Assembly: GCA_947303335.1 (NCBI GenBank)
Contig: CAMYYB010000004.1
Location: forward strand, 11,618-75,617
Direction of reading: 5' to 3'
DNA length: 64,000 nt
From: an uncultured Bacteroidales bacterium
GTDB taxonomy: Bacteria > Bacteroidota > Bacteroidia > Bacteroidales > F082
Below the pieces are notes generated by a model. It was not told the DNA's origin and searched no databases. It saw only the letters and a program-made list of their open reading frames with translations. Position 1 is the stretch's first letter. Each line of letters opens with the position of its first letter. The position numbers and the translations under genes were made by a program. Shown piece by piece: positions 5,347 through 46,446 of the stretch.

Positions 5347-5348
5347 TC

Positions 5349-6833
5349 TCACACTGCGTTGACGATTTCCTCAAATGTCCGAGTGTCTTCCCCGAGGTCC
5401 ATCTTCATTTGTTTGATGCGGGTCTTGCGTTTGTAGTAGGAGTCGGTCTGGGTGTCCAAGAGGATGGAAATCACCTGGTTGGAGAAGCCGTTCTTCGAGA
5501 GGCAGCAGATGCGGACATCCCATTTGCTGAGTCGGGGATAAAGCTCCAAGAGGCGTTGCGAGAAGCCGTCGTACACCAAATCAGTAAGACTGATGAAGTC
5601 GGCCCAGTCAGCATCGCTGAGGGCGAAGCTCATCGTGTCTGCCGTCACCTGGTCACCGAGGCCTTGCGCTGTGGCGTAAATCTTGTTGCGTCCCATGATT
5701 TTGCTCGTCATCAGCAGGTCTTTCTGCGAGAGGGTCTGCCGGTCGCGGCGCAGGTCGTCGTTGGTGCGGATGAGGGTCTCCATATCGCTCACCAATTCGT
5801 GGATACGGTTCTGGTCGCGCTCCACCTGACTCTGGAACTGGGCAACGGCAATCTTATGGTCGCTCACCTTCTTTCTCACCATCATGGTGATGAAGAGTAT
5901 CATGATTACCGCTGCGGCGATGATGAGCCAGAGCTTGAGGCTACGGTTGCGGAGCAGGAGCTCCATCTCGCTCTTCTGGGCTTTCAGCTCATACTCGGCC
6001 TTGAGGCGTTGCATGTTCTCGCTGTCGTGTTCCTTCTCCACCTGCAAGAGGCTCTGCGTGAACTGGTCCTGATAGTCGGTGGCCTGCTGGTAGTTGCCTT
6101 CGTTGTAGGCGATAGCATAGAGGGTCTGATAGACGGACATCCTCACCCCTGCCCTTTCGCTGCGCAGGGCTTCGTTGAGATGGGTTTTGGCCGTCTCGTA
6201 GTCGTCGGTGTAGTAATACAGCACACCGAGGGTCATCTGGGCGATGTCGAGGTCGTTGCCTTCCAGTCCGCCCTCCATGGCGCGGGTGACGCAATCGATG
6301 GCCTTGGGGAAGTTGCCCACGGGCAGGTAGTAGTCGCGCCCCATCTCAAGGTAGAGGTCGTTCTGCATCGCCTCGTCATTAATTAAGGTGGCCATGCTGA
6401 AGGCGGTGTCGTAGTAACGTTTGGCGTCAGTATACTGTTCCATCGACTTAGCCACGCGGCCACAGTTACGCATAGCCGTCATGATTTCAGTCGTGTCGTT
6501 CACCGAGCGGAAACAGGCGATAGCCTCGCGGTGCATCGCGAGGGCGTCCTCAAAGAGGCCGTGCTTGTTGTACATCGCTCCGAGGTTGTCTTTCAGCTGG
6601 CCTTCGAGGAGAAGTGTCCGAGGGTCTGTCTCATCCTTGTCGAGAAGTTCAAGTGCCTGGAGGAACTTTTCGGCAGCCTCTTCCGAGAGGCGCTGGCTGC
6701 GCAGTTCGGTGCCTTCTTCATATAAGGTATGCGCACGCTCATAACGCTTGGCCGACGTGTCGCAAGCGGTCATCATCACGCTTAGAACGAGGGCCGTAAG
6801 AATTAGGGATTTCACTGTTGCATTCATAGGCAA
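5349..6833 (-). CDS. TPR-repeat protein with one internal TM helix and a C-terminal LuxR/GerE-like HTH (putative membrane-anchored regulator)
   Basis: N-terminal lipoprotein-like signal (LVLSVMMTAC), TPR-like helical repeats and a TM segment LWLIIAAAVIMILFITMMV. The C-terminal LSKWDVRICCLSKNGFSNQVISILLDTQTDSYYKRKTRIKQ resembles a GerE-type HTH. Confidence 0.5.
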   Translation of the reverse strand: MPMNATVKSLILTALVLSVMMTACDTSAKRYERAHTLYEEGTELRSQRLSEEAAEKFLQALELLDKDETDPRTLLLEGQLKDNLGAMYNKHGLFEDALAMHREAIACFRSVNDTTEIMTAMRNCGRVAKSMEQYTDAKRYYDTAFSMATLINDEAMQNDLYLEMGRDYYLPVGNFPKAIDCVTRAMEGGLEGNDLDIAQMTLGVLYYYTDDYETAKTHLNEALRSERAGVRMSVYQTLYAIAYNEGNYQQATDYQDQFTQSLLQVEKEHDSENMQRLKAEYELKAQKSEMELLLRNRSLKLWLIIAAAVIMILFITMMVRKKVSDHKIAVAQFQSQVERDQNRIHELVSDMETLIRTNDDLRRDRQTLSQKDLLMTSKIMGRNKIYATAQGLGDQVTADTMSFALSDADWADFISLTDLVYDGFSQRLLELYPRLSKWDVRICCLSKNGFSNQVISILLDTQTDSYYKRKTRIKQMKMDLGEDTRTFEEIVNAV

Positions 6834-26354: not shown

Positions 26355-27698
26355 CTAATTTTGATTATTAATGATTTTTTCCAAAGTAGTATCCGTAAAA
26401 GTATCCCAAATCTTAAGTCGGATAGGCTTATAATCATCAAATAATTGCTTGATGAATTCTACTTCAAACACCAGCCGCAAATCATTTTCATCAGCATCAG
26501 GATGCACTTCATGTTTGGAACCTACTCGAGCTATTTTGATGAGATATAAATCCCTAATTCCTTGCTTTTTGATATATGGCATAAAATAATACAACTTATT
26601 GAGTGCCACAGTAGAAGGAAACTTTTTCCCTGTATAATAAACCTTTGCCGAACCGTCAAGGAACAAATCAACATTATCACTCTTCACAAGACTGACTAGG
26701 ACATTTTTCCCATTATCTAAATTAGAATCAACAACTTCTGATCCATGATTGACAATCTCTGCTGGAAACTCTTTCTTAATATCCACAACATTTATTGGGT
26801 TGTCAACTCCCAAATATGCCATTATGGAATCACCAACAAACTTGGCTAAATTGACAGGAACTGCGTTACCAATCATTTGTTCCATATCAGTCTTGGTACC
26901 AATGAACTTAAAATCTTTCGGAAAAGTCTGAATCATGCTACGTTCTCGTGTTGTCAACGGGCGAATGCCCTCCAATGTAGTTACTGGATCCGTTGGATGT
27001 AACTGATAACCAGATGGCATAGGACGATTCACTCCACGAATAGTGGGACTAGGTTCGTTAACGCTAAAAATACCTCTACGGGCATAACTGCGAGGGTGCC
27101 TGTAATAATACTTAATGTCTATCTGGTTTCCAAAATAATCTGCAATGGTCATTTCTTTTGAAGCTTGACGCTTCTCCAACACATCAGCCATAAAGCCGTC
27201 ATTTTCACCGAGATGACCTATCATAATAAAACGTTTACGCCGTTGTGGAACGCCACAAAAACTTGCATTTAGCACAGTCTCTGTTAGACCATAGCCACAA
27301 TCCTTGAAGATTTCCCTCGCCTCAACCAACTTGCCCGTCTTTAAGATTCGGTCAACATTCTCCATTACAAACCATTCTGGTTTAATGGCAGCAACAATCT
27401 TTGCATAACTCACAGTCAAATCACCCCTCCCATTATTCTCGTTGCGTTTCCCCGCAGATGAAAAATCTTGACAAGGGGGACCTCCTATTATCATGTCAGG
27501 CCTATACTTTTCAATCTCCACAACCGTTGATTCAACATCCGATAAATCTTGTTTTATTACAGGATGGTCGAAATTGTTATGATAAACGGTAACTGCTTCT
27601 TCCCAATTATCAAACGCGGCAAGGATTTCATATCCAGCCTTTTGAAAGCCTAAGCTCAAGCCTCCACAACCACAAAACAAATCAACTACTTTCATCAC
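26355..27698 (-). CDS. DNA (cytosine-5)-methyltransferase with a roughly 150-aa C-terminal extension
   Basis: Motif I DLFCGCGGLSLGF, motif IV GGPPCQDFS, motif VI ENV, motif VIII QRRKRF and motif X GNAVPV (near aa 285). About 150 further residues match no motif I recognise. The gene is AT-rich. Confidence 0.9.
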   Translation of the reverse strand: MMKVVDLFCGCGGLSLGFQKAGYEILAAFDNWEEAVTVYHNNFDHPVIKQDLSDVESTVVEIEKYRPDMIIGGPPCQDFSSAGKRNENNGRGDLTVSYAKIVAAIKPEWFVMENVDRILKTGKLVEAREIFKDCGYGLTETVLNASFCGVPQRRKRFIMIGHLGENDGFMADVLEKRQASKEMTIADYFGNQIDIKYYYRHPRSYARRGIFSVNEPSPTIRGVNRPMPSGYQLHPTDPVTTLEGIRPLTTRERSMIQTFPKDFKFIGTKTDMEQMIGNAVPVNLAKFVGDSIMAYLGVDNPINVVDIKKEFPAEIVNHGSEVVDSNLDNGKNVLVSLVKSDNVDLFLDGSAKVYYTGKKFPSTVALNKLYYFMPYIKKQGIRDLYLIKIARVGSKHEVHPDADENDLRLVFEVEFIKQLFDDYKPIRLKIWDTFTDTTLEKIINNQN

Positions 27699-28768
27699 AC
27701 AAATAGTTCAGGATGACTAACTAAATAAGCATCGAATCTTCTTTCCGGACGAAGAAACTTTTGCCCATTACCTAGAATAATATTCTTTATCTCATGCTTT
27801 GAGACTCTTGGCTTGGATAATTCATTACACCTCATCAACGGATTCGTTAATTTGCCACTGATTGCAAAAGCTTTGTCTGTTTTATACTTGTATGACAAGT
27901 CATTGACAATGCTAGTATAGTTGAACCTATTAAATTGTGTAAAATCCCACAACATTTTGTATAACCAAATGATTGTCCGTTGGTTGCGGGAAATGTCATC
28001 CACAGGATTTGTTTCCCTCAAACACATTTGTATTACTGACAGATTCGACCATACAAAAACATCAAGACATTCTGTTGCCAAATCTCTTAGATTTTGGCTT
28101 GTTTTCCAAATAGGCTGTATTATTAAGGGGACTTGCTTTCGTGAAATATCAGAAGAAACATTTAATACAGCTTTTTTTATCTCATCATAATGAGGTAACA
28201 CTTGCCTGATTTCTCCCCAATTCTTTATTTCCTCACCTATTGTGTTCAGTAAAATGTGTAGTTTGTTTTTCCCTTTTGGATTGTCGTAACAAGCACAAAT
28301 GCTACAAGCAAGAAATAGAATTGTAGGAGACCTTACTACAATTTCGCTTCCATAATCTATCTCATTTGCATCCTTTGTAGTGTTATCAGGAAGCGTAGTC
28401 AATTTGACTTCCAAACCACTCATTGGTGCGTTCGTTGTGCGATTTATCATCACTAAATCTATCTTCTCCTTTTTGGAAGCTACATAATACTGTTCGTATG
28501 GGTAATATCCTGACTCATAATCATAATACGCTTCATCACTTAATGGGTCTATTTTCAATAGATCAGACGCAGTAATGTACTTATGAACAATTTCATTATT
28601 ATTCTTCGTACAAATATATACAGGATCCATACCTATACTTCCCATATAAGCCACCAACGAAGCAGGAAAAGAACTATTAAACTGGTTCTTACCCCAACTA
28701 TCTTCTTTGGTGTAGTCTCTACTGGAATGCTTTTGTCCAAAAAGACCAGGTGTTATTTCTTTTTCCAT
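27695..28768 (-). CDS. Type II restriction endonuclease candidate (PD-(D/E)XK)
   Basis: ATGA stop/start overlap with the methyltransferase. KIDLVM...GLEVKLT fits a D...ExK catalytic core. Same AT-rich composition. The track start at 28777 is GTG, so I prefer the ATG at 28768 (MEKEITPGLFG). Confidence 0.6.
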   Translation of the reverse strand: MEKEITPGLFGQKHSSRDYTKEDSWGKNQFNSSFPASLVAYMGSIGMDPVYICTKNNNEIVHKYITASDLLKIDPLSDEAYYDYESGYYPYEQYYVASKKEKIDLVMINRTTNAPMSGLEVKLTTLPDNTTKDANEIDYGSEIVVRSPTILFLACSICACYDNPKGKNKLHILLNTIGEEIKNWGEIRQVLPHYDEIKKAVLNVSSDISRKQVPLIIQPIWKTSQNLRDLATECLDVFVWSNLSVIQMCLRETNPVDDISRNQRTIIWLYKMLWDFTQFNRFNYTSIVNDLSYKYKTDKAFAISGKLTNPLMRCNELSKPRVSKHEIKNIILGNGQKFLRPERRFDAYLVSHPELFV

Positions 28769-28798
28769 AGTTATCACTCATTGGGAATTAGCATTTTG

Positions 28799-33324: not shown

Positions 33325-33362
33325 TTGACTTTGACACTTTGACACCTTGACACTTTGACACC
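33325..33362 (+). repeat. TTGACAC iteron-like array (4-5 copies, 8-nt period)
   Basis: The sequence is ttgactttgacactttgacaccttgacactttgacacc. It lies between the primase-like stop and the next ORF. Confidence 0.85.
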
Positions 33363-35828
33363 TTATTGCTTTCGGTACATCCTCTCCCCTGTCGCCACAA
33401 TCAGCTTCTGTATACGCCAGTTCTTCAGCATCTGCTTCACGCTGTTGCGCGTCACGCTGGCTCCCTTCACGGCAACCGCATGTTGCACGGCTTGTTCAAA
33501 GGTGAACTGAGGATCTAAGCGTTCAAAGATGGAGTCGTTTCTGCCTCGGAAGACGCGCTCGCCCAAAGGGCCACCCGCATAATCCCTGCTGGTGAAGGCA
33601 TTCTCGATGCGCTCGCGGAAAAAGTGGAGCGCATTCTCTATCAACGAATTGGCAATTTCATCATAGATGTCCAACAGCTGCGGGGTCTGCACTTTCAGCA
33701 GCATCTCCTTCCAGAGGTTGGGCTGTTGCTTCAGTCGGTTTTCCGCTCCGTTCATGCCGTGCTTCTGGATAAGGGTCTCGGCCACCTTGCAGAGCATCAG
33801 GCAGCAGGTCATACGCTGGGCGGTCACGCAGACGCGCATCCTTTGTCTGGCCATCGTGCGGTCGTCGTTCTTCATCGTCTCCAAGCGGACGTTCTCCACC
33901 CATTGGCGGCCTTTCTCCTCCAACTTGGGCAGTACCACCTCCCCTTGCATCAAGGGCAGCAGGTGGGCAATCTGACGGATACGCTCGGCCTGCTTCTCGG
34001 TCAGGACGAAAGGCTTGTCCTCCAAGGGCGCGAAGGTGTTGTCGGGCGTTCTTGCGACTGCAATACGGCTTTGGAAGCCGTCCGTGTAGTTGTTGACGAC
34101 TCTGTAGAGGGCATCAGGTGTGCCGCACATCGTCACATTCCACAGCAGTTTTTCAATGTGGACGTTGACGGCATCCGCGCTTCTGGCTTCTCTTTCGTAC
34201 TTGGTGCCGTCGTAGCTCTGACGGAGCATGATGGAGAAGTCGCTAAGAGAGGACTTCCATTTCTGTGCCACCGTGTCCGCTTCGGGCGTGAAGGAAAAGG
34301 CATGTTTGCCCTCCGTGTTCGCGAGACGCTCCGCAAGGTTGGCGACCGTATTATTCAAGGTGAGGCACCGGACTGGGAGTTTCGGTTCCTCAGGCTGGTC
34401 TTTCTTATTCTTGGCAGCGCGTTTCTTTGCCCGCCATTCATCCTCCTGCATCTGGTACATCTTGTCCAAAGTCACCACTTCGCTCATCCAGGCTTCCACC
34501 ACAGGGTCGATTTGTCCCTTGCCGCTGGCGAAGTCGCCGGCGATATAGGCAATGAGATTGAGGCCTCTTTTCTGACCATGAACATCAAGCCGCACGCCTG
34601 TGGCCAAAGCTCCGATGCAGGGACAGATAGCCGTCACCACGGGCATCGCCAAACTCGGCCCCACCGCCTCGATGGATTCCCTGACCCCTTGCGGAAGTTT
34701 TTTAGTTGACAGTTGGGAGTTGAGAGTTGTCAGTTCGTCCTCCTCCTCGTCGTTGCGAGGAACGAAGCAATCTAGACAGCCACTCCTGTCAGAACTTGAA
34801 CCCTGGTTTGCTTCACTACGTTCGCAATGACGCGAAGCGACGCTGACCTCACCATAGAGTCTTTGGCTCTGCGTAAAGAGTTCCTCCTGGTACTTATAGA
34901 GCTTCTGCGAAGGGTTGGTATAGTTGGCATAGAAGTCATTCACCAGTTGCTGGATGTTCTCATCGTTCCAGTGTTCGGGCATGAGTTCCGCAAGTATGCC
35001 GTTGGTCTCGGCTTGGGTCAGCAGCTGGGTCACGCCACCCAAGAAAATCTTCACGGTAGTATGCCTGCCGCCCTCGTTCAGGAAGTCGCTTGGCTTCAGG
35101 TTCTTCTCCTTCATCACGCCCTTGGCGATGAAGCGGGTTCTCTGGTTTGCTTCACTGCGTTCGCAATGACGCGAAGCGGCAGCATCTGAACGGGTTGCCT
35201 CAGTGCCAGAAACACTTCCCTCGCGCTCAGGGTGAGGCTGGTCATCGTCATGGTCACAAGTCATAGTCTCATTAACAAACAGCTCATCACTCAAATACAG
35301 CAGATCCTCCTCGCTCGCGGTGGTGGTGAAGAACACCCGCGTGATGTCCTTCGCGCCTTCATCGTACTTCATGCCCAGCAGAAGGCTCGCCCAGCGGAGG
35401 TTCCCTTCCTGTGTGAGGTCGGGCTTGCGCTTGAAGACGAGGTGGTAGCCCTTGGTGGCCGAGCGTTCCAGCATGAGCAGTCCCAGCTCATCCTTCTTGG
35501 CCAGCACCAGTTCCGGCACAGCCGCCATCTTCTCCTGCAGCCAGGCTTGCTTTTCCTCAGCCGAAAGGTCTTCGGGAGCCACAAAGTCGACGTCCATCCC
35601 CACCGTGTTGGAAGGTATCTTGCTGCCTTTCAGCGAACCATCCTTGTTGGGCAGGCAGCTGTAGTTCATCTGGAGCAGGTTCTTCTTCAGTTCCACCTCG
35701 CCCTCGCGGATTCTTTTGACCGTCTTTTTCTGGAAGACGCTGTCGCGCAGCTTGCGGTATTCGGCGGCATCTTGGACAGGGCGCATTTGTTTCGCCCTGC
35801 CCTTATAACTGATGACGTATGCACTCAT
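33363..35828 (-). CDS. Putative primase-helicase-like protein (BT4734/VirE-N-like N-terminus plus DUF3987-like C-terminus)
   Basis: The N-terminal block ...NYSCLPNKDGSLKG...VGMDVDF...KGYHLVFKRKP resembles VirE-N/primase-like modules of Bacteroidales islands. The C-terminal half has a degenerate P-loop GDFASGKG as in DUF3987. The central linker is built of repeat elements. Confidence 0.5.
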   Translation of the reverse strand: MSAYVISYKGRAKQMRPVQDAAEYRKLRDSVFQKKTVKRIREGEVELKKNLLQMNYSCLPNKDGSLKGSKIPSNTVGMDVDFVAPEDLSAEEKQAWLQEKMAAVPELVLAKKDELGLLMLERSATKGYHLVFKRKPDLTQEGNLRWASLLLGMKYDEGAKDITRVFFTTTASEEDLLYLSDELFVNETMTCDHDDDQPHPEREGSVSGTEATRSDAAASRHCERSEANQRTRFIAKGVMKEKNLKPSDFLNEGGRHTTVKIFLGGVTQLLTQAETNGILAELMPEHWNDENIQQLVNDFYANYTNPSQKLYKYQEELFTQSQRLYGEVSVASRHCERSEANQGSSSDRSGCLDCFVPRNDEEEDELTTLNSQLSTKKLPQGVRESIEAVGPSLAMPVVTAICPCIGALATGVRLDVHGQKRGLNLIAYIAGDFASGKGQIDPVVEAWMSEVVTLDKMYQMQEDEWRAKKRAAKNKKDQPEEPKLPVRCLTLNNTVANLAERLANTEGKHAFSFTPEADTVAQKWKSSLSDFSIMLRQSYDGTKYEREARSADAVNVHIEKLLWNVTMCGTPDALYRVVNNYTDGFQSRIAVARTPDNTFAPLEDKPFVLTEKQAERIRQIAHLLPLMQGEVVLPKLEEKGRQWVENVRLETMKNDDRTMARQRMRVCVTAQRMTCCLMLCKVAETLIQKHGMNGAENRLKQQPNLWKEMLLKVQTPQLLDIYDEIANSLIENALHFFRERIENAFTSRDYAGGPLGERVFRGRNDSIFERLDPQFTFEQAVQHAVAVKGASVTRNSVKQMLKNWRIQKLIVATGERMYRKQ
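34704..34735. repeat. GTTGAGAGTTG-type word repeat in frame inside the primase-like CDS
   Basis: The sequence is agttgacagttgggagttgagagttgtcagtt. It encodes LTTLNSQLST on the minus strand. Confidence 0.85.
34747..34771. repeat. REP-like arm CGTCGTTGCGAGGAACGAAGCAATC inside the CDS
   Basis: It encodes LDCFVPRNDE. It is an imperfect inverted partner of the arm at 34811-34835. Confidence 0.7.
34803..34839. repeat. 37-nt repeat CTGGTTTGCTTCACTACGTTCGCAATGACGCGAAGCG, copy A, inside the CDS
   Basis: 36/37 identical to 35142-35178 and 339 nt (113 codons) away. It encodes SRHCERSEANQ. Confidence 0.9.
35142..35178. repeat. 37-nt repeat, copy B, inside the CDS
   Basis: See copy A. Same reading frame and same peptide, SRHCERSEANQ. 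Confidence 0.9.
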
Positions 35829-36331: not shown

Positions 36332-36461
36332 TAGCGACTATTTTAGAGCGAAATGCGCTAAAACACAGTATTTTACTCAATATCCAATGAATCCAACGCT
36401 TTTGCGGGATTCTGTCCAACGAATCCAATTGTTTGTCCAAAATACAACTTAAAAAAGGCAT

Positions 36462-36487
36462 AAAAAAAGCCTCAATCGAGGCTTTTT
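36462..36487 (-). terminator. Terminator closing the five-gene operon
   Basis: aaaaaaaGCCTCaatcGAGGCttttt. On the minus strand the stem is followed by a T run. It lies 64 nt after the stop at 36551. Confidence 0.65.
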
Positions 36488-36550
36488 CCAAAAACGTTGC
36501 ACTATTTTCTCTTTATGATTTCTTATCCTCTATGATAGCGAATGATGAGG

Positions 36551-37597
36551 TTAGATATCAAGACTATTTTCTCGCTCTATGTCTTGTTTCAGTGCCAATA
36601 AATGCGTAAGCAATCCTTTATTGGCTATTTGATTCACTCGTTCTGCCTTAGCTGCACCCAAAACCTTCACCATGCCCTTTGACCATATTTCTTTAAGCGG
36701 AACCTCTTGTTTCATACTTCCTTTTCTCCAAAGATGCCTTTCTTCTGAAATGGATTTGGATAGTTTTCTTTTAAAATCCTTGAATGTTTCTGGTGTCTCA
36801 TCAGGGAAAAGCATTGGGAACCATTCCACCATCTGTTCAACAAAATTGGTGTTTGAAATTTTAGTTCTTGCCACACCTGACTCACATATTGCCTTTACAA
36901 TATAATACCATTCATTTTTAGAGGCTGGATTGATGCGTACCTCCTGTGGCTTACCATACATGATAGTGGCTTCCCCCATATCTATTGCGGCAGCAATCGT
37001 GTCCCGAAGTTTTGCCAATCTTGAATTTGAGTCAAAAAGGCTTACATTGAAAATAAAGTTCTTTAAGGGTTCTTCTTCAACAGGCGCATCTTTTTGCTTT
37101 CCCTTTGTCTTTGTACCAAAATGAATCTCGCCACCATCGTTATAGAAGAAGTTAATGATTGTACCCTTCTGCGAAAGCCGTTGTTCATTTATTTGACCCA
37201 ATAGGGCATCAATAGTCTTTGTCAAACAATACCACGAGAAAAACGCATCAAAATCAGAACGATCAATTTGACCGTCAAATACCATCTCTAGCACTTTAAT
37301 AAACTTTGCCTCGTCGTGTTGTTTGGTAGCACCATCGAAACAATCCTTCCAATATTGAAAAAACCTCCCATTGTGATAATTTTCCAATATAGCTTCACGT
37401 TTATTTCTTAGAAAACGCGACAATTCTTCAACATCATCTGGTGAGACATGTAGTTTCATCTCCTGCCAAAACGAATCCAAAATCTTTTTCCAAATAGGCC
37501 CATTCATGAAATCAATTCGTGCCTTATTGAAAAAACCTCTATAATCTTCGGCTTGAATGGCGGGTAAGTTGTATTTGTTTTCACTTATTGTAATCAT
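36551..37597 (-). CDS. Orphan protein, last gene of the NurA-HerA-GHKL-rSAM operon
   Basis: 348 aa from the ATG at 37597 (MITISENKY); the track start at 37621 is TTG. Overlaps the radical SAM gene by 17 nt. Mostly helical-looking with a K/E-rich linker (TKTKGKQKDAPVEEEP). No motif I can name. Confidence 0.5.
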   Translation of the reverse strand: MITISENKYNLPAIQAEDYRGFFNKARIDFMNGPIWKKILDSFWQEMKLHVSPDDVEELSRFLRNKREAILENYHNGRFFQYWKDCFDGATKQHDEAKFIKVLEMVFDGQIDRSDFDAFFSWYCLTKTIDALLGQINEQRLSQKGTIINFFYNDGGEIHFGTKTKGKQKDAPVEEEPLKNFIFNVSLFDSNSRLAKLRDTIAAAIDMGEATIMYGKPQEVRINPASKNEWYYIVKAICESGVARTKISNTNFVEQMVEWFPMLFPDETPETFKDFKRKLSKSISEERHLWRKGSMKQEVPLKEIWSKGMVKVLGAAKAERVNQIANKGLLTHLLALKQDIERENSLDI

Positions 37598-39524
37598 TTC
37601 TCTGGTTCTGTCGTGCTTCAAATTCCTTTTTCAATTTATATAGATCCGAGTGACAATCGGCAATATCCTTACGATAGTCTTTATAAAAAGACAAAACATA
37701 CTTATACTTCTCGTTATCAGTTAATTCTTCAATGTGATTGAAGTCATTCTTATAAATAATGGGCAGGAGTTCGTTTCGTTCCTCATCGGTCAACTCCGCC
37801 ATCGCTTTCTTCCATTGTTGCGTGTATCCTAAATCCTCAAAGAAAAATCGGAAAAGAAGAAATGTCTCTGGCATCAACAGCAACTCCATATACTCATCTT
37901 CGTCTCGTCCAAATGCCTTTTCAAAAAACGATACTCCCCGACCAATTTTTCCTTTCGTGGCATTAAGAATGGCCTGTACAGCCCGAATGTATTTTTTATT
38001 CCAATGCTCACCAATATAATCACGGTCATGGCTATGCTCTCCTCGTATTGGATGATACTTCATCGGGAAAGAATAAATGCTCACATTCATGGTCTCGCAC
38101 ATTTTAACATTCACACTTAGACGATGATACAAGTCAACAGGTTTGTCATCAAAATTATAGAGTAAATAATTCGAAAAATCACGCATACCGTGAGCCTTAC
38201 TAAGCTTTATGGCCTTTCTATATTTTGGTTCGGTTTTTATATTATCGAAAGCGATTCTAAGAGGACGCACGGGTATTTCCTCTAATAAAGACACGATTTC
38301 TTCAGTAAACAATCGGGCATCAACTCCTTGATTGAAGTCTACAAATCTTAATCGCCCCTTCAATCGCTTATATTTTTCATCAAAGTATGGAGCAAAGTCC
38401 TTATATGTTGCTATCAGTTCATCTCGCTTACACGTTTCTGGATGAAGGAAACCATGTTTCTCTCGCAAAGCAAAAACCTCCGTACGCATTTTTTCATTTA
38501 GACCCTTATATCCATTGAGAGCCTGTAACAGCTTATAACATTTTCGAATGTAGGCGCGATCATTCACGTGTAGCCGTAGGTTTCGAATGGCGATGTTATA
38601 TAGATTCGGCTCAACATACTTTGCTCCCTTAGAAAAGCCACACGATTTTATATCCTCAACAATGTCCTTTAATCTTGGTGAAGCTAACACATTGTTATCC
38701 ATAAGTAACAAGTTCTGCTGTTCACCATATAGACGTCGGGTACGATCAATTCGGTCGTGAAGAGGAATGTATTCCTTATAGTGTGGCTCTAACGTCCAAA
38801 CTGCACAGAACTTGCATTTGCGAATACATCCACGAGTACTGTAACTATAGTAGGAACCGCCATCAGGATATTCGTAATCTATCTCGTCAAGAATAGAATA
38901 GTCAAGTGGCAATTCATCAATGATGTACGGATTGTCTTCATCAATATCACCACCCTTGCCGTCTACAGCTTTTGTGTGTAAAGTACCACAATGAGGTTTT
39001 ATACCGGTAGCTTCTTCTATTTCCCTGGGCTGAATAGAAGCCAGCACGCCACCCACCATCAGATTCTTAAGGTCTTTTACCATCGTTTTTGCAAATTCAA
39101 TCGTTTCGATGGTAATGTCCCAATAAAACGTAAAGAGAGTGGTTACACCTACCCAATCCCAACGTGGATGTTTTTTATATTCTCCAGTGTGATAGAATGA
39201 TTTATAATGGTCTATCCATAATTGAATAAAAATGCTATCCTCAGAATCCTCTATTCCGATACTTTCAAAATCACTTTTCCGGCGATTGCGCAAATATGCC
39301 GCAATTCGGTCTGAACGAAGTTTCCAATCGATAGTATCGTCAACTTTCGATAATTGTTCAACACATTCTTCTGTGATTTGGCGAACAACAAATTCTGTAA
39401 GGTCTCCCTTATAGAACACAACATCATCTCCTCGCAATCTAAAATATGTGGCCAGTTTCATAAGGCCGATTGGAGGAAATTTATTTTTGTAGTTAGGTTC
39501 TAAAAGCAAGACCCTACGGCTCAT
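37581..39524 (-). CDS. Radical SAM enzyme with N-terminal B12-binding-like (Rossmann) domain
   Basis: CX3CX2C cluster motif in YSTRGCIRKCKFCAVW. It is preceded by RVLLLEPNYKNKFPPIGLMKLATYFRLRGDDVVFY, typical of the B12-binding-type N-domain of class B-like rSAM proteins. Confidence 0.85.
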   Translation of the reverse strand: MSRRVLLLEPNYKNKFPPIGLMKLATYFRLRGDDVVFYKGDLTEFVVRQITEECVEQLSKVDDTIDWKLRSDRIAAYLRNRRKSDFESIGIEDSEDSIFIQLWIDHYKSFYHTGEYKKHPRWDWVGVTTLFTFYWDITIETIEFAKTMVKDLKNLMVGGVLASIQPREIEEATGIKPHCGTLHTKAVDGKGGDIDEDNPYIIDELPLDYSILDEIDYEYPDGGSYYSYSTRGCIRKCKFCAVWTLEPHYKEYIPLHDRIDRTRRLYGEQQNLLLMDNNVLASPRLKDIVEDIKSCGFSKGAKYVEPNLYNIAIRNLRLHVNDRAYIRKCYKLLQALNGYKGLNEKMRTEVFALREKHGFLHPETCKRDELIATYKDFAPYFDEKYKRLKGRLRFVDFNQGVDARLFTEEIVSLLEEIPVRPLRIAFDNIKTEPKYRKAIKLSKAHGMRDFSNYLLYNFDDKPVDLYHRLSVNVKMCETMNVSIYSFPMKYHPIRGEHSHDRDYIGEHWNKKYIRAVQAILNATKGKIGRGVSFFEKAFGRDEDEYMELLLMPETFLLFRFFFEDLGYTQQWKKAMAELTDEERNELLPIIYKNDFNHIEELTDNEKYKYVLSFYKDYRKDIADCHSDLYKLKKEFEARQNQRNDYNK

Positions 39525-41122
39525 TTTGTCAGCTCCTTTTCAATCTTCTTGATAAGCCCTTCACGCATAGCCTCGTCTGCAATGGCGTTATATATCGCTT
39601 CAAATACAGTGTTGATGACATCTTTTTCCTTATCACCAAACTTATCATAAATAGCATTATCTGTTCTTAATTTCGGTTGGTCTATAGTTGATTCAGCAAC
39701 AACAGAAGCGCCTTGGAACAAATCGTTCATTTTTCTCCCGCTGACGCAGTTTTTTTCTTGCGGAGCAGGCTCAATAGGAGGTAATGTGCCATAAATAAAG
39801 CCAAGAGGAGAGCCGTTCTGCTCTGTTTCCTGTTTCTTCTTCTCAAATTGTTGGAGAGCTTTTTCTTTATTCTTCTTGAAACGCTCAAATTTTACATCAT
39901 CATCCTCAATTTCTTTTTGGGACAAGAATGAACTCGATTCTCGTTTCTTCTCTATAATTTTTTGCCCCTCTTCTGCCTTAGTAATATTCCTAATGATTCC
40001 TCTAATATTAGATGCTTCGTTACATAGTTCTTTTAGTGTAATAAAATCGTTCCTTACCATTCTCTCGAATGTGCTTCTATATTCGCATTCGCGAAGATAG
40101 TCACGTCTAGCATCTGGCATTAATAGTGAGGTCTCCACATGCAATTCTCCAAAGAAATACTGAGAAAACCGTTTGTCCCCTTCTGCCGTGAAAAAGTTAC
40201 GGCATGTGCGTTCATCGCCAACTTGTATGTTCTTGCAGCGTAGTCTTATCCCGTAAGCGATATTGTTGACTGGGATTTGTCCTCGCAGTTCAGATATTGA
40301 ATACCAACCCCAATAAATAAGATTACCATCTGTATCACGTCTGTCGAATAGTTTTATATCTCTGATGTCGTAATCTCCATTTCTTGCATCTTTAATCTTT
40401 GTTGTATAACCTTTGTAAATCTGCTCCTCGCCGTTTTCATCACCGACATATATGTTGTACACATCCAAGGTAATTCTATTGGTCTGTACATAACGTTTAA
40501 TTTGTGAGGAAAAAACATTAAATTGGGTCGGGTAATCAACAGGGGCAACCATTGATAAATAATCACGGATATTGTTTACATCAAGCAGTTGATCATCGGA
40601 AACATTCTCCATGATAACTTTGAAATAGTGCTTTTCCAATGCTTCTGGCTTTTCTTCAAAAGATGTGCAATCGTCAATTACATTTCCCGCCTCACTTTCA
40701 TCCATTTCATCATCTACAATACGATTCATCTTTTCAGCATCCCAATGCATCAAGGTTTTTACGCTTTCACCTTTATAAGTCGTTTCGAAAGTCAATGTAG
40801 TACAATAACCCAAACCTCCGAGACGGCCAATCCCACGAAATCCTTTCCGTTCCCCACGCCTCTTTTGTGAAGTTGCAACGTCTTTCAAGGTGTCACGATT
40901 ATTCGAGCTTACACCGGTAGCAGTATCCTCTATCTCGATTCTCCTTTGACCACGAAAGATTCTAACATGTATCTCGTAATAATCATTGTCTTCTAAATGC
41001 TGCTCGCGAGCTATGTCTATCTGGTCAGCCGCGTTTTGGATGTATTCGCGATAAATACAACGACTATCCTCATACATACTTCGCGTGAGGGAATCAATAA
41101 CGTATTTTCCAATTTTTGCCAT
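39521..41122 (-). CDS. GHKL (Bergerat-fold, HSP90/MORC-like) ATPase
   Basis: N-box YREYIQNAADQ, G1-like IEIEDTATGV and G2 box GFRGIGRLGGLGY. Start moved to the ATG at 41122 (MAKIGKY), because the 41320 start would overlap the HerA gene by 190 nt. Confidence 0.8.
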   Translation of the reverse strand: MAKIGKYVIDSLTRSMYEDSRCIYREYIQNAADQIDIAREQHLEDNDYYEIHVRIFRGQRRIEIEDTATGVSSNNRDTLKDVATSQKRRGERKGFRGIGRLGGLGYCTTLTFETTYKGESVKTLMHWDAEKMNRIVDDEMDESEAGNVIDDCTSFEEKPEALEKHYFKVIMENVSDDQLLDVNNIRDYLSMVAPVDYPTQFNVFSSQIKRYVQTNRITLDVYNIYVGDENGEEQIYKGYTTKIKDARNGDYDIRDIKLFDRRDTDGNLIYWGWYSISELRGQIPVNNIAYGIRLRCKNIQVGDERTCRNFFTAEGDKRFSQYFFGELHVETSLLMPDARRDYLRECEYRSTFERMVRNDFITLKELCNEASNIRGIIRNITKAEEGQKIIEKKRESSSFLSQKEIEDDDVKFERFKKNKEKALQQFEKKKQETEQNGSPLGFIYGTLPPIEPAPQEKNCVSGRKMNDLFQGASVVAESTIDQPKLRTDNAIYDKFGDKEKDVINTVFEAIYNAIADEAMREGLIKKIEKELTK

Positions 41123-41129
41123 ACCTAAA

Positions 41130-42800
41130 TTAATCGTTATAGTATTTGTAAATGGGTAGCGGGAAGTTGATGTGTAGCATTGAACGGAACACAGGATTCT
41201 GAATAATGTATTCACCTTGACGCATCCGAGTAAGCATTGTCTTATATACGCTTGGAACAAAACGGAAGTCCTCACGAGTAATCTCAATTGCATTAGTACG
41301 TCCAAATGCCTGTGTAGCACAATTTCCCTTGACTCGACGATGAATGTCGCTCACAAACTGCTCTGCTCCGAACAGAACGATGCCAAGTGAACGTCCACGT
41401 TCTGTAATATCAAGCAACTGGTGGAGTATTGGCGAAGACTTTGGAACATCACTTGATGCGTATTTGTTTAGCTCATCAATGAAGATGATAATACGATCTG
41501 GTATTTCTTCATCTGGTCGCTTTGAGGCACCAAGTTTCAGATTGTAAACAGCTCGCATCACATCACCAAACACAAAGCCTTGTGATTCTTCATCAAGTTT
41601 TGCCACGTCAATCACCATAACGTCATTCTTGTTGATGTTAGCAATTTCATCACGGAGTCGTACACCATCATCACCAAGTTTATTCGTAAACATCTGCTTG
41701 CACTTCTGGTAGCTCTTGTTAAACAGGCGATAGAACTTGCGCCAGCTCATGACAGATATTTCCTTTGTAGTATTCTTCTTATCCGACTGAGTATAACTCT
41801 TCACTACCTGCAAGAAGTCTTCCCAAGTCTCAACACCATAAAAGTCGCCACTATTGGCCATAATAAAATTCACGATACTTTCAATGGTTTCATTCGGGTC
41901 ATCTACATTGGCAAAAAGCAAATCCAAACACTCTTTATCTTCATCAGTCTCAAACAGATATTTGAATTGAGCTGCCGTTTTATTGGCAAGTCGCTCTTTC
42001 AATACACTCTCTTTTTCGTATGTGTAAGTCGTGTATTCCTTTGCAAATGGATAGTAATACTTCACTTGCTCAAATGGTTTCATTTCCATATTAAGCAAAT
42101 CGTACACAGGCTTGATAAGGTCGAGTTCCTTCTTGCGTTCATTCTTCTGGTCTATTTTCAAAAGGTCAGTACCTTTGACATTCATCATGATAAAAGCAAC
42201 CGATTCATTCCCCTTAATGGCATAATCTTGTATAGCTTTCATCAGGAACATAGCGTATGAAGTCTTTGAAGCCAAGCCTGAAATACCAGAGATATTCAGG
42301 TGAGCCCCCTCTGGTCCAATCAAAAAATGAGAGTTGAAGAATACTGGGAGTGTTTCCTTGTTCTCTCCATCATACATTTCAATGTAGCCTGCCGGCAAAG
42401 GATTCTTTACGTCCTTCAGGCCTAACGCCTCCATGATTTGTTTTTTCTCTGCTAAATGTACCTTCCTGCCTTCTTGGACGGGAATATAGATGCCTTTGTC
42501 ATTCCCCACCACCTTGCACTTTACATAATTCATGCCGATACGTTCAGTATATGATTTGGCATCAACATCGCCAAAGTCGCTGGAAATATAACCTGCCAAA
42601 GCACTTGGAGAATCTGTCATGTGGGATATTTCTTCTACCACACCAAAGGTTTTTGAATCTTCACCGCCCGCATCTTTTACATGATCAACTACTACGACAT
42701 CGAAAGGTTTCAATTTCAAATCCTTCCTTGTCCAAAAGGTGAACTCCTCAATAGTAGAGGGTTGTTTTTCTGTCGCAATGATACGTCCTATTGTTTCCAT
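41130..42800 (-). CDS. HerA-like (DUF87/FtsK-HerA superfamily) ATPase
   Basis: N-terminal barrel-like segment GRIIATEKQP...FDVVVVDHV, P-loop region LNISGISGLASKTSYAMF, Walker B RIIIFIDELNKY, and downstream GRSLGIVLFGAEQ. Confidence 0.75.
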   Translation of the reverse strand: METIGRIIATEKQPSTIEEFTFWTRKDLKLKPFDVVVVDHVKDAGGEDSKTFGVVEEISHMTDSPSALAGYISSDFGDVDAKSYTERIGMNYVKCKVVGNDKGIYIPVQEGRKVHLAEKKQIMEALGLKDVKNPLPAGYIEMYDGENKETLPVFFNSHFLIGPEGAHLNISGISGLASKTSYAMFLMKAIQDYAIKGNESVAFIMMNVKGTDLLKIDQKNERKKELDLIKPVYDLLNMEMKPFEQVKYYYPFAKEYTTYTYEKESVLKERLANKTAAQFKYLFETDEDKECLDLLFANVDDPNETIESIVNFIMANSGDFYGVETWEDFLQVVKSYTQSDKKNTTKEISVMSWRKFYRLFNKSYQKCKQMFTNKLGDDGVRLRDEIANINKNDVMVIDVAKLDEESQGFVFGDVMRAVYNLKLGASKRPDEEIPDRIIIFIDELNKYASSDVPKSSPILHQLLDITERGRSLGIVLFGAEQFVSDIHRRVKGNCATQAFGRTNAIEITREDFRFVPSVYKTMLTRMRQGEYIIQNPVFRSMLHINFPLPIYKYYND

Positions 42801-42807: not shown

Positions 42808-43980
42808 TCAGAACAGATTTATAAACTGAATATCACTCGTAAATCGACTTTTACAATAACTCTCAGCCATATACACAGGATAAAGATGATTTGCCCAACG
42901 GGCATCATTCCCGTAGCAAACAGGATTGCGTTCATTGATGATGTTTGCCGTTATGGTGTCTATTTCATCGGTCATCAGTCCGTTGTCATTCTCACTACCA
43001 GTCATTAGCATCTTCTCAATCTTCAGCACACCAGAATAAGGTGTTGTGGTATGTTTAATGTCTCGAATACGAACATACCAAATGGCAAAGTTTACATTAC
43101 CCCATTCATTTCCAGGACTCCAAAGAAAAGCCGGAGTGCGGTGGAACAGTGGTAGATTTGCAATTGCGCCGGCACTACTTTGGCCTTTGTTGTCTTTCAT
43201 TAAATTGGGATTGAAACGCTTAGAAACGCCGACAACGTGGCGATAATTATTGCGAATACGAGCCAATTCTTTATAGTCGCCTGATTTCATCGGTTTATAC
43301 TGAATGGAGCCGTCCTTTATCAGATAACTTTCATGAGTCAACATATGCTTACTCATCATTCTTGCTACAATACGTTTTTCGCAATCTACCATCTCATCTT
43401 GAATACGTGCAACACCTTTATTCTCCAAAGTTTCACGTCCCTCAAGACGAGTAAGGTACCAAAGCACCTTGCCAATCTCAATACCAGACTTCAATAATAA
43501 AGGCTGCTCATTCAACTTGTTCCTCAAATTGCCAAAGAATACACTATTGTCTACACCATCACCATTAGCTACTACCGGCAGACATACCACAGAGTACGCT
43601 TCTTCGTCTACATGTTGGAAGGAGCGGAACGTATAATCATCATTCATATCTCGTCCACAACATGCGACAGAGACTTGGCCACTAACAACGGGAAAGACTT
43701 TCTTGTCGTATTGAATATCATCCACCTTGTAAACACGACGTGAACCATCAAGGAAATACTTAAAAAGTGGAGGGCCTTGCCTACACAGTTCTGCCCTCAA
43801 AGTCATATCGCGCATCTTAGGATCGTGGTTACTCTCTGCATATTCCTTCATGTTGATGTAATGATCTTCATCGGTATCATATTCGATATTCGGGCCAGCC
43901 GAGTCATCATAGCAATACTTGAATGACGCAAAGCGTTTACCTTGAGTCTCACTTGCTATATAGTCCAAAATTTTACCCAT
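42808..43980 (-). CDS. NurA-like nuclease
   Basis: DGS motifs FLDGSRR and LIKDGSIQY as in NurA-domain proteins. Lies immediately upstream (7-nt gap) of the HerA-like gene, as in nurA-herA pairs. Start set at the ATG at 43980; the track start at 43986 is TTG. Confidence 0.55.
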   Translation of the reverse strand: MGKILDYIASETQGKRFASFKYCYDDSAGPNIEYDTDEDHYINMKEYAESNHDPKMRDMTLRAELCRQGPPLFKYFLDGSRRVYKVDDIQYDKKVFPVVSGQVSVACCGRDMNDDYTFRSFQHVDEEAYSVVCLPVVANGDGVDNSVFFGNLRNKLNEQPLLLKSGIEIGKVLWYLTRLEGRETLENKGVARIQDEMVDCEKRIVARMMSKHMLTHESYLIKDGSIQYKPMKSGDYKELARIRNNYRHVVGVSKRFNPNLMKDNKGQSSAGAIANLPLFHRTPAFLWSPGNEWGNVNFAIWYVRIRDIKHTTTPYSGVLKIEKMLMTGSENDNGLMTDEIDTITANIINERNPVCYGNDARWANHLYPVYMAESYCKSRFTSDIQFINLF

Positions 43981-44051: not shown

Positions 44052-44936
44052 TCATAGTGTCCTAATGACTTCTATGGTAAGCCCTGTGACATCGGCAATA
44101 TCCTCTTCAGAAAAGCCTTTGGCTTTCATCTTACGGGCATTTTCCATATTAGCTTCTGCTTTTCCCTCTGCTCTTCCCTCTGCTCTTCCTTCCTCTTTCG
44201 CCTCCATCTTTGCCGTATTGATGGCGTTGTTGATGTCGCGGTAGGCCTTTACGCTGTCTTCGTAGCCTCGGCGTTCCTCTGGTGAGAAACGGGCTATCTC
44301 GGCCTGCTCAAAGAGCTTCGTGAACACCTTCTCCTGCAAGGCCTTCGGACGCTCGAACAAGCGGGAAAGATTGCGTAGCACAAAGAGCCACTTGTCGAAC
44401 ATGTCCACCAGCTGGTCCTCCGTCTTGTTGAACTTCGGCATCTCAAGGTAGATGTACGTCAGCTTGTCGTAGAACACCTTCTTGGTCTGCGTGTCCATCA
44501 GCTTCACCTCATGATGCCAGCAGTTCTTGGAATACTCATCGCCGCGGAACTCAAAGTTCAGTATGCCCACCGTATAGACTTCCTTCAAGTTGAAATCCCA
44601 ATCGGCGCCGACTTTTGCCTGCTCCTGGATGGGGAAGGTGGAATAGAACACGCTGCGGTCCTTGAAGAACTGCTGGTAGACGTTCTGCATCTCAACGATG
44701 AATTTGCCACCATTCTCGTTTTCGCAATACACGTCGAAGATGGCGCGACGGCTGTCGCCATACGCCCCGAAATGCTCCGTGGGGAGGTATTTCACATCCC
44801 TGATTTTCTGATGTCCCATAAACAGGGCATTGAGAAAACTGATGAGCAAGTCCTTGTTCATCTCCGTACCAAACAGTTTCTTGAAGCCGAAGTCGGTGTA
44901 GGGGTTGATGTATTTCTCTTTGATTTCTTCTGACAT
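44052..44936 (-). CDS. Rpn-family recombination-promoting nuclease / PD-(D/E)XK putative transposase
   Basis: N-terminus YINPYTDFGFKKLFG and FDVYCE...FIVEMQ (D...ExQ/K core) are typical of the PDDEXK_2/Rpn family. The C-terminus has EGRAEGRAEGKAE repeats. Confidence 0.8.
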   Translation of the reverse strand: MSEEIKEKYINPYTDFGFKKLFGTEMNKDLLISFLNALFMGHQKIRDVKYLPTEHFGAYGDSRRAIFDVYCENENGGKFIVEMQNVYQQFFKDRSVFYSTFPIQEQAKVGADWDFNLKEVYTVGILNFEFRGDEYSKNCWHHEVKLMDTQTKKVFYDKLTYIYLEMPKFNKTEDQLVDMFDKWLFVLRNLSRLFERPKALQEKVFTKLFEQAEIARFSPEERRGYEDSVKAYRDINNAINTAKMEAKEEGRAEGRAEGKAEANMENARKMKAKGFSEEDIADVTGLTIEVIRTL

Positions 44937-45285: not shown

Positions 45286-45361
45286 ATATGAAAAAAACGA
45301 GCATAATTAGCATAAAAGTTGATTTTTTGCCAAAATACTTTCCAGAATCAACTTTTATGTT

Positions 45362-45369
45362 TATTTTTG
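45362..45369 (+). promoter_or_regulatory. -7 box TATTTTTG
   Basis: 21 nt upstream of the ATG at 45390. Confidence 0.5.
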
Positions 45370-45389
45370 CAGCAGAATTTAGAAAAGAT

Positions 45390-45872
45390 ATGGAAAGAAA
45401 TCTGCTGATAGAACTGCTTGAAGACGGAGAGAAAGTTAGTCTGTACTCTCCTCACTTTGAAGGCGAGGAATACTCTGAGTTTGAGAAGTTCTTGCTGACC
45501 TACAAGGACACATATCCTGACGATGTGCGTCAATTGGTGTACAGACTTGACATTATTAAGCGCGATGGTGCACGAGATATGCATTTCCGTTATGAGGGAA
45601 CACGACGCGACAGGGTAATGGCTTTGCCTTCGCATTTGGAAACAACTTCGTTGAGACTATATCTTCTGAACATACAGGCTAAGATTCTTATTTTGGGAAA
45701 TGGTGGACTAAAAAATACGGCCACATACGAAGAGGATGAGAATCTGCATCGGCAAGTAAAGGTACTTCAAAAGATTGATATTGAACTGAAACAAAGGGAA
45801 AAGAATAAGGTGATAGTGGTAACAGGCACAGAATTACTGGGCGAACTGTCTTTCACTATTGATGATGAATAA
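45390..45872 (+). CDS. Gp49/HigB-like (RelE superfamily) putative toxin
   Basis: FEKFLLTY...VRQLVYRLDIIKRDGA...FRYEG...LRLYLLNIQAKILILGNGGLKNT fits the Gp49/HigB pattern. Followed 17 nt later by an XRE HTH gene. Start at the ATG at 45390, 21 nt after a TATTTTTG box. Confidence 0.45.
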   Translation: MERNLLIELLEDGEKVSLYSPHFEGEEYSEFEKFLLTYKDTYPDDVRQLVYRLDIIKRDGARDMHFRYEGTRRDRVMALPSHLETTSLRLYLLNIQAKILILGNGGLKNTATYEEDENLHRQVKVLQKIDIELKQREKNKVIVVTGTELLGELSFTIDDE

Positions 45873-46258: not shown

Positions 46259-46284
46259 ATCCATCGTGAAGCCTTGTTCCGTAA

Positions 46285-46321
46285 GGTGTCAAGGTGTCGA
46301 AGTGTCAAAGTGTCAAAGTGG
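46285..46321 (-). repeat. TTGACAC iteron-like array in inverted orientation (GTGTCAA on the + strand)
   Basis: The sequence is ggtgtcaaggtgtcgaagtgtcaaagtgtcaaagtgg. Confidence 0.85.
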
Positions 46322-46342
46322 TTTTCACAGCCGAAAAACGTC

Positions 46343-46378
46343 CACTATATATAAATAATTAATTATTTATATATAGTG
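46343..46378. repeat. Perfect 36-bp, almost pure A/T palindrome CACTATATATAAATAATT/AATTATTTATATATAGTG
   Basis: Read directly. It is flanked by oppositely oriented TTGACAC/GTGACAC arrays. Confidence 0.9.
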
Positions 46379-46382: not shown

Positions 46383-46446
46383 CCTTGACACCTCAGAAAT
46401 GAGTTTGACACCGTGACACCGTGACACCGTGACACCCATGACACCC
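46383..46446 (+). repeat. TTGACACC / GTGACACC array (5-6 copies)
   Basis: ccttgacacc ... tttgacaccgtgacaccgtgacaccgtgacacccatgacaccc. Confidence 0.85.

Follow-up and report, generated by a model that had tools for sequence, protein, structure and literature searches.

The window analysed here is a 64,000-nucleotide stretch from an uncultured Bacteroidales bacterium of the F082 lineage (contig CAMYYB010000004.1 of assembly GCA_947303335.1, positions 11,618 to 75,617). It contains a five-gene operon, A to E, whose fourth gene encodes a radical S-adenosylmethionine (SAM) enzyme (rSAM). We hold with moderate confidence that the cassette built around this enzyme is a modular DNA-targeting conflict system acting against phages or plasmids, with a core formed by a GHKL ATPase and the rSAM and with an exchangeable nuclease and motor module, which here is NurA-HerA. 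A role in defence is probable, because the catalytic residues are kept, the genes are coupled, and the cassette is mobile among phyla and sits among defence genes and on plasmids and prophages. Whether DNA is the substrate of the gene D enzyme is a more evenly balanced matter, and that the enzyme modifies DNA, rather than damaging or sensing it, we propose with some doubt.

All five genes lie on the reverse strand. Gene A (42808..43980) encodes a predicted NurA-family nuclease of 390 amino acids (aa) from MGKILDY, recognised by its fold; its longest open reading frame (ORF) begins at TTG 43986. Gene B (41130..42800) encodes a 556-aa HerA-family hexameric translocase/ATPase, recognised by a profile match to the HerA structure 7f6d_B, and gene C (39521..41122) a GHKL ATPase of the HATPase_c_3, paraMORC/Hsp90-like kind, 533 aa from MAKIGKY, recognised by Pfam. 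Gene D (37581..39524, ATG start) encodes the 647-aa rSAM, and gene E (36551..37597) is an ORF for a 348-aa accessory protein of unknown fold, read from ATG 37597. Gaps of 7 nt separate A from B and B from C. As the original prediction had it, gene D is coupled on both sides: its start overlaps the stop codon of gene C in an ATGA, and genes D and E overlap by 17 nt, given the gene E start at ATG 37597, which is the start in the public gene calls. Those calls, all unnamed, match the exact products of A (390 aa), C (533 aa), D (647 aa) and E (348 aa). An intrinsic-terminator-like hairpin with a 13-bp stem and a T-run (36461..36490, reverse strand) ends the transcription unit about 60 nt past the stop codon of gene E. 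Genes A to E are thus one translationally coupled operon with a terminator after E. A sigma-70 promoter scan was set aside as uninformative for Bacteroidales.

The gene D product carries the CX3CX2C motif as GCIRKCKFCAV (C233-IRK-C237-KF-C240). The three cysteines are invariant among 59 orthologues, and in an alignment of 51 sequences reaching down to 32% identity C237 and C240 remain invariant, while C233 and F239, the latter being the aromatic residue expected ahead of the last motif cysteine of a radical SAM enzyme, are each kept in 50 of 51. Other residues are invariant or nearly so across the family: E9-P10, K15, P17, D276-N277-N278, D396-F-N-Q-G400, S451-N-Y453 and S485-F-P487. The D-N-N strand stands in for the GGE motif. 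Sequence profiles respond weakly, with 20.9 bits for Pfam Radical_SAM PF04055 (gathering threshold 29.5) and 23.1 bits for the Pfam B12-binding domain (cut-off 32.1). A remote relative, P0150, reaches 33 bits on PF04055, and the score of gene D below the threshold of that model is a failure of sensitivity and no argument against the fold. Gene D matched nothing in NCBIfam or PADLOC, and neither the single sequence nor a 43-sequence profile found anything meaningful among PDB sequences. No sequence orthologue among characterised metabolic or peptide-maturing radical SAM enzymes was thus found in NCBIfam or the PDB, and the intact motifs predict a catalytically competent enzyme.

The fold was assigned from an AlphaFold (AF2) model built from 51 diverse sequences, which has a predicted local distance difference test (pLDDT) score of 93.2 and a predicted template-modelling score (pTM) of 0.89. 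In this model a B12-binding-like Rossmann domain of beta-alpha-beta type (approximately residues 1-180), interrupted by a helical insert (residues 42-118), precedes a radical-SAM core (approximately 220-500), itself interrupted by a basic helical insert (residues 308-390, net +8, also seen in the alignment). A C-terminal helical domain of about 150 aa (approximately 500-647) follows. In Foldseek searches of the PDB the best matches were TsrM (2.7e-7), MgmA (6.3e-7) and AprD4 (2.4e-5), all at probability 1.0; MiaB and RimO also reached probability 1.0, with weaker E-values of 1.6e-3 and 9e-3. All five place a Rossmann-type N-domain ahead of the radical SAM core. Every match with a probability of at least 0.9 is a radical SAM enzyme, which indicates a partial (beta/alpha)6 TIM-barrel core. 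The long C-terminal helical region and the Rossmann-like B12-type N-terminus that the original prediction had read from the letters are therefore both present in the model, and the N-terminal segment it pointed to (RVLLLEPNYKNKFPPIGLMKLATYF...) is highly conserved.

As modelled, gene D has the architecture of a class-B-like radical SAM enzyme: a B12-binding-type Rossmann domain comes ahead of a [4Fe-4S]/SAM core, and an auxiliary cluster is absent. B12-binding domains classically show SxL and GG motifs spaced by 26-28 residues. The gene D family keeps [ST]128-x-L130, 27 residues and then G158-G159, in agreement with that spacing, and no DxHxxG is seen in the family alignment. Neither the orthologue alignment nor the 51-sequence alignment contains an auxiliary-cluster cysteine motif: the only other cysteines conserved above 90% in close orthologues are C54, C295 and C476, which are dispersed and not family-wide. 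The C-terminus is all-helical and lacks the cysteine-rich auxiliary [4Fe-4S] motif of SPASM/twitch enzymes. Methylthiotransferases such as MiaB and RimO have a three-cysteine auxiliary cluster in the N-terminal domain and end in a TRAM domain; in gene D the sole conserved cysteine within residues 1-180 is C54, in the helical insert, and there is no TRAM match in Pfam. With TsrM, MgmA and AprD4 it shares the order of the two domains, a B12-type Rossmann domain at the N-terminus and then a radical-SAM partial barrel with the CX3CX2C motif. Gene D differs from all three in its two large helical insertions and its 150-aa C-terminal helical domain, in scoring below the Pfam thresholds, in having no NCBIfam model and in being surrounded by DNA machinery rather than biosynthetic genes.

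The three enzymes encoded upstream bear out the nuclease/translocase context that had been proposed for gene D. Gene A had no Pfam (NurA included), NCBIfam or PDB sequence match. Its AF2 model (pLDDT 81.7, pTM 0.84) has NurA structures as its top three Foldseek matches (7f6d_G at 6.3e-13, 1zup at 8e-9, 2ygk at 3e-8; the next at E>0.06), and D78, E201, D223, D359 and H365, in FLDGSR and KDG motifs, are its invariant acidic and histidine residues. We therefore take gene A to be, by its predicted RNase-H-like fold, a NurA nuclease. A profile of gene B made from 12 orthologues matches Deinococcus radiodurans HerA (7f6d_B) at E=2.1e-51, its HAS-barrel match in Pfam is weak (18.5 bits, sub-threshold), its Walker A (GISGLASKTS) and Walker B (FIDELNKY) residues are invariant, and its sole PADLOC match is a weak one to mad8 (2e-9); the profile and motifs identify it as HerA. 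Gene C scores 30 bits on HATPase_c_3 PF13589 (cut-off 25), and its profile finds the N-domains of HtpG/Hsp90 as its closest PDB sequences (2e-12). The Bergerat motifs (N box, G1 and G2; E26/N30/D33, D66..G70 and G97-x-G99) are invariant. By sequence, gene C is a HATPase_c_3 GHKL ATPase. MORC and paraMORC proteins are defined by an S5-fold transducer domain behind the GHKL domain, and the likeness of gene C to paraMORC refers to its GHKL domain. The catalytic motifs of all four enzymes are thus intact. Gene E, even as a profile, had no match in Pfam, NCBIfam, PADLOC or the PDB.

To define the conserved neighbourhood, hidden Markov models for rSAM, GHKL, HerA, NurA and DGQHR were scanned over all ORFs of 198 loci. 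Among the 121 loci with at least 1.8 kb on both sides of the rSAM, 110 have a GHKL gene on the same strand within 1 kb. In the 110 loci with at least 5.2 kb upstream, a collinear NurA-HerA-GHKL-rSAM arrangement is found in 83. GHKL is the only partner in 10, GHKL and DGQHR occur together in 4, all four partners in 1, and partial sets (HerA and GHKL; NurA and HerA only) in 2, while 10 have none of NurA, HerA, GHKL and DGQHR. Homologues are thus not normally found outside NurA, HerA and GHKL contexts, as the original prediction had expected; what it did not foresee is that the constant core is the GHKL-rSAM pair and not NurA/HerA, which is swapped for other genes in remote relatives. The complete order is kept across phyla even where identity has fallen to about 45% (D) or about 30% (A and C). 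The helical insert at residues 42-118 follows the nuclease and motor module: its median length is 77 aa in gene D proteins linked to NurA/HerA and 5 aa (that is, absent) in others. Because it is confined to NurA/HerA-linked proteins, it is a candidate docking element.

The original prediction also placed gene D between an ATPase and an orphan gene. The position is correct; gene E itself is not a regular partner. Only about 20 of 65 genome loci have a detectable gene E (32-64% identity), and elsewhere the position after D is taken by reverse transcriptase, another GHKL, MmeI-type, Schlafen/AlbA_2 or HNH genes, which are other defence-island genes. Gene E was accordingly rejected as a core component and is, in this operon, co-transcribed outside the conserved core.

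Some loci carry expanded cassettes. In five of them (L107, L111, L115, L117 and L124; for example L107 1943-12004) the order is NurA-HerA-GHKL-[AAA_15/AAA_21 ATPase, 460 aa]-[258 aa]-GHKL-rSAM, and in L147 it is NurA-HerA-GHKL-GHKL-[329 aa]-rSAM. These arrangements indicate duplication of the GHKL gene and insertion of an OLD/ABC-like ATPase pair.

In remote relatives the nuclease and motor partners are exchanged. The orders found include AIPR-rSAM-GHKL (L067), DEAD helicase-DUF1998-NERD helicase-rSAM-GHKL (L069, L072 and L186) and rSAM-283 aa-GHKL (L062 and L071). Rhizobium and Novosphingobium plasmids and several viral contigs have ParB-like-small protein-DEAD helicase-(ParB-like or DGQHR)-rSAM-GHKL, and a PIN_8+GHKL pair adjoins these loci. 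One DGQHR-rSAM fusion lies beside an Eco57I-type gene and ThsB-TIR/SLATT, and in L136 NurA-HerA-[170 aa]-DndB-family-GHKL-rSAM form a single operon. In Marinitoga camini virus 1 a shortened gene D homologue lies directly against genes annotated as HerA and NurA-type. The DGQHR proteins belong to the ParB superfamily and form part of the Dnd and Dpd DNA-modification machineries, and DpdB is an ATPase needed to insert preQ0 into DNA (PMC10164549, PMC10853773). The recurrent linkage or fusion to DndB/DpdB-like DGQHR proteins in remote relatives therefore gives independent contextual support for a DNA-directed role. A discussion of DndC as a 'radical SAM' protein in PMC10853773 is unrelated.

Three further observations concern these remote loci. 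The two-gene unit of PIN_8 and a second HATPase_c_3 GHKL was seen beside DGQHR-rSAM-GHKL on two unrelated alphaproteobacterial conjugative plasmids, in differing orientation (L073, which is pNL1, 1979-5487, and L074, 10062-13578), and it may be a nuclease module of the same system. At loci without a GHKL gene, a protein of 480-680 aa with an invariant 'DGNRR' motif lies directly upstream of the rSAM (L066 6307-7929, L167 7897-9936, L168 8251-9936, L170 8485-9933 and L171 8268-9833). It had no Pfam match, and hhalign comparisons with the GHKL and DGQHR profiles gave a probability of 0.1 each, so we make no claim that it is a cryptic GHKL or DGQHR protein; it may be ParB-like. On the viral contigs L187 (11380-12615) and L192 (11344-12591), a second, unrelated radical SAM protein (PF04055 at 7e-13, with Radical_SAM_N2) comes right after a short rSAM homologue of 467-493 aa.

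The family is large and widely spread. More than 7,900 close homologues of gene D were scored. With E<=1e-3 as the limit, an exhaustive search of 1.84 billion representatives returned 1,622 clusters (at 50% identity), and with E<=1e-30 it returned 261. Repeating the homologue search with a diverse profile yielded only an abundant clade at 72-73% identity and no added diversity. Carriers include many Bacteroidales genera as well as metagenome-assembled genomes (MAGs) of Treponema, Kapabacteria, Gastranaerophilales and Izimaplasma. The metagenomes come from gut, rumen, marine, sludge and fermentation samples, and the family is abundant in gut and rumen Bacteroidales. Homologues also occur on 43 IMG/VR contigs, where the flanks are temperate-phage early regions, on alphaproteobacterial conjugative plasmids and in Marinitoga camini virus 1. 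In their sources the members are named only 'hypothetical protein' or 'radical SAM protein'. We read the cassette as self-contained and horizontally transferred, and it moves as a unit among phyla.

Two loci are peculiar in their likeness. In each of the four proteins, L009 (Candidatus Limimorpha, Bacteroidales) and L010 (Candidatus Gastranaerophilales) show one and the same percent identity to the window. They also share a downstream reverse-transcriptase gene, though their MAGs are assigned to different phyla. This match reflects either a very recent horizontal transfer or a binning artefact.

Within the window the cassette lies in a small island. The GC content of the operon is 39-41%, against about 50-55% in its flanks. 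Arrays of four to five tandem GTGTCAAR octamers, at 33328..33365 on the left and 46282..46322 on the right, form a 38-nt inverted repeat that is 92% complementary and brackets a segment of 12.9 kb. A third array (GTGTCACG repeats, 46407-46435) lies just outside it. Matches to the GTGTCAAR array number 7 in the window and 0 are expected by shuffling. No integrase ORF was found inside the bracketed segment. The arrays may be mobile-element ends or iterons bound by a protein; the idea that they travel with the cassette was rejected, since none of the 198 loci carries them. A perfect 36-nt AT-rich palindrome (CACTATATATAAATAATT/AATTATTTATATATAGTG, 46343-46378) was also noted immediately outside the right array.

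Besides the cassette, the bracketed segment holds a DUF3987 primase-like gene (33363-35828, 821 aa), a PDDEXK_2 gene (Rpn-family 'transposase', 44052-44936, reverse strand, 4e-77) and a 194-aa gene (45288-45872, forward strand) that matches the PADLOC candidate component PDC-M64B at 4e-40 and, more weakly, PDC-M64A. Because the PDC-M64B-like and PDDEXK_2 genes both lie inside the repeat-bounded segment, it is a small defence island. This defence-island and mobile-element setting went unrecognised in the original prediction, which had called radical SAM chemistry next to DNA-end-processing proteins unusual and had rightly found no cofactor-biosynthesis or peptide-maturation genes: no precursor-peptide, transporter, protease or cofactor-pathway genes were detected in the island with Pfam, NCBIfam or PADLOC. 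A separate low-GC type II restriction-modification pair lies at 26355-28777 on the reverse strand (C-5 cytosine methylase of the Dcm kind, PF00145 at 3e-72; HindVP endonuclease, PF09519 at 6e-136), and the surrounding chromosome is Bacteroidales-like, with a protease bearing a type IX secretion system (T9SS) tail, glycoside hydrolases and adk. As a separate observation, the DUF3987 gene contains a 37-nt in-frame direct repeat (34803-34839 and 35142-35178, 97% identical, 339 nt apart). It encodes the repeated peptide SRHCERSEANQ and looks like a small repeat element inserted twice.

How could such a cassette work as a DNA-targeting conflict system? A GHKL dimer could clamp DNA with ATP and present it to the rSAM, which would make a covalent change in the DNA through a 5'-deoxyadenosyl radical, possibly with cobalamin as methyl carrier. 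That change would most likely be a self-marking modification, and NurA-HerA would thread and degrade DNA in the wrong modification state. It is tempting to take this further and to suggest, as a possibility that we regard as rather speculative, that the GHKL-rSAM pair, joined by DGQHR/ParB-type helpers in some lineages, writes a radical-SAM-dependent covalent mark on host DNA, and that NurA-HerA, or helicase, PIN and NERD modules elsewhere, restrict unmarked DNA. The mark could be, for example, a C- or P-methylation at a chemically unactivated position.

Several points weigh against a DNA-targeting conflict system of this kind. The case for a defence role is a contextual one, and genes A, C, D and E have no match to the system models of PADLOC-DB v2.0.0. 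We know of no radical SAM enzyme with a B12-like domain that acts on duplex DNA, nor, to our knowledge, does HerA-NurA have the ability to read a DNA modification. The structural neighbours of gene D act on tryptophan, protein glutamine, an aminoglycoside, tRNA and a ribosomal protein, and the modest TM-scores against the nearest solved structures (0.32-0.54, at 10-14% sequence identity) indicate that its substrate-binding regions are unlike those of any solved enzyme. AprD4 shows the B12-Rossmann/rSAM fold without bound cobalamin, and cobalamin binding by gene D cannot be inferred. The window cassette itself has no DGQHR protein, and 10 of the 110 loci lack a recognisable GHKL. Finally, co-occurrence figures such as 83 of 110 come from loci retrieved by conserved peptide patterns, which is a biased sample, and are not population estimates.

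Several known systems come near the cassette. Like Dnd (phosphorothioate) and Dpd (7-deazaguanine), it is multi-gene and mobile and combines ATPase and nuclease modules, with an unusual modification chemistry that is only proposed here. The linkage or fusion of gene D relatives to DGQHR (DndB/DpdB-family) proteins is a further feature shared with these systems. Unlike them, the window cassette has no DndA/C/D/E, DpdA, Que or DGQHR gene, no Dnd or Dpd enzymes were found in the window with Pfam or NCBIfam, and its putative writer is a radical SAM enzyme, which neither Dnd nor Dpd uses in this way. Sir2-HerA, DUF4297-HerA and HerA-NurA likewise pair a HerA hexameric translocase with an effector nuclease. 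Canonical HerA-NurA operons carry Mre11/Rad50 and, unlike the cassette, no GHKL-rSAM pair. In the known HerA defence systems the partner of HerA is Sir2 or DUF4297 and not the set of NurA, GHKL and rSAM (PMC11514289, PMC11291478).

The survey of Iyer et al. (2008, PMC2292703) links GHKLs of the paraMORC type to operons of a restriction-modification-like kind. The cassette is like these paraMORC/MORC operons in that its HATPase_c_3 GHKL shares a mobile operon with a nuclease and a motor, and AIPR and helicase partners recur among gene D relatives; that survey describes no radical SAM partner. We found no paper naming both radical SAM and paraMORC, and, within incomplete coverage of the literature, no description of an rSAM-GHKL, rSAM-NurA-HerA or rSAM-DGQHR module.

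The alternative that survives best, though we consider it unlikely, is that the rSAM has a protein of the same system as its substrate (it could methylate GHKL or HerA, say, or place a radical on them) and leaves the DNA to NurA-HerA and GHKL. The protein methylase MgmA and the protein methylthiotransferase RimO are among its structural neighbours, gene C is Hsp90-like in sequence, and the rSAM is almost invariably paired with one partner, whichever gene comes first and often through overlapping stop and start codons, a pattern expected of an enzyme with its substrate or its chaperone. Yet the DGQHR/ParB-type fusion and adjacency are easier to explain by action on DNA, and stoichiometric self-modification has no obvious need for a conserved large basic insert such as that at residues 308-390 (net +8).

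A free nucleotide seems an even less probable target. Here the rSAM would convert it to an antiviral chain terminator or a signal, as viperin does; the GHKL would be the sensor and NurA-HerA a second effector. Precedent exists, in that the radical SAM enzymes with proven anti-phage roles, the prokaryotic viperins and the viperin-related OpnA of Ophion, act on nucleoside triphosphates (bioRxiv 10.1101/2025.09.30.679545), and like them the gene D family occurs in defence islands, and also in prophages. Viperins, however, belong to another structural class and lack the B12-like Rossmann domain of gene D; none is found among the 50 best Foldseek PDB matches of gene D, and the viperin models of PADLOC gave no match. 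No nucleotide kinase, phosphatase or phosphoribosyltransferase (PRTase) genes lie alongside, and the DGQHR/ParB, helicase and nuclease partners point instead to polymeric DNA. Ophion was the only recent rSAM defence system met in the literature; since its rSAM is viperin-like and is partnered by PHP and PRTase, it was not accepted as a relative of the cassette.

It is similarly improbable that the cassette serves a mobile element's own DNA transactions, with the rSAM processing a lesion or structure (compare spore photoproduct lyase), NurA-HerA resecting and a MutL-like GHKL coordinating. GHKL ATPases do include MutL, and the cassette is found on plasmids, prophages and islands beside replication genes. 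NurA-HerA is moreover the classical machine for end resection (PMC12977600; 7f6d). What speaks for a conflict system instead is that the cassette is surrounded in different genomes by typical defence genes, which differ from locus to locus, that the defence-type partners AIPR, NERD, PIN and DGQHR recur, and that a sporadic distribution of the kind produced by horizontal gene transfer, together with low GC, fits conflict systems. An ordinary metabolic, cofactor or peptide-maturing class-B rSAM placed beside DNA genes by chance is effectively excluded because the synteny is conserved (NurA-HerA-GHKL-rSAM to about 45% identity across phyla): the reading frames overlap with those of partner genes, no biosynthetic, precursor or transporter genes were found with Pfam, NCBIfam or PADLOC, and the weak sub-threshold NCBIfam matches of remote relatives that might favour it (B12-rSAM P-methyltransferase, HpnJ and lipid-ladder) reach 19-27 bits against cut-offs of 360-775 and cover the cluster-binding loop only.

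Underneath the cassette lie known kinds, namely class-B-type radical SAM enzymes and HerA- or GHKL-containing defence systems, with a realistic chance of categorically new chemistry. If the GHKL-rSAM pair does write a mark on host DNA, the cassette would be a third exotic modification-restriction family after Dnd and Dpd, and in gene D a radical SAM enzyme would for the first time be seen to modify duplex DNA so that self can be told from non-self. Action of the enzyme on DNA would add a new substrate class to radical SAM chemistry and a new epigenetic or restriction mark, and action on a protein or a nucleotide would still bring to light a new mechanism of immunity. In both cases GHKL and rSAM make up a new functional pair, of relevance to phage therapy and Bacteroides engineering, and the coupling of the rSAM to GHKL, with modular NurA-HerA, DGQHR/ParB, helicase and PIN partners, defines a testable new conflict system.

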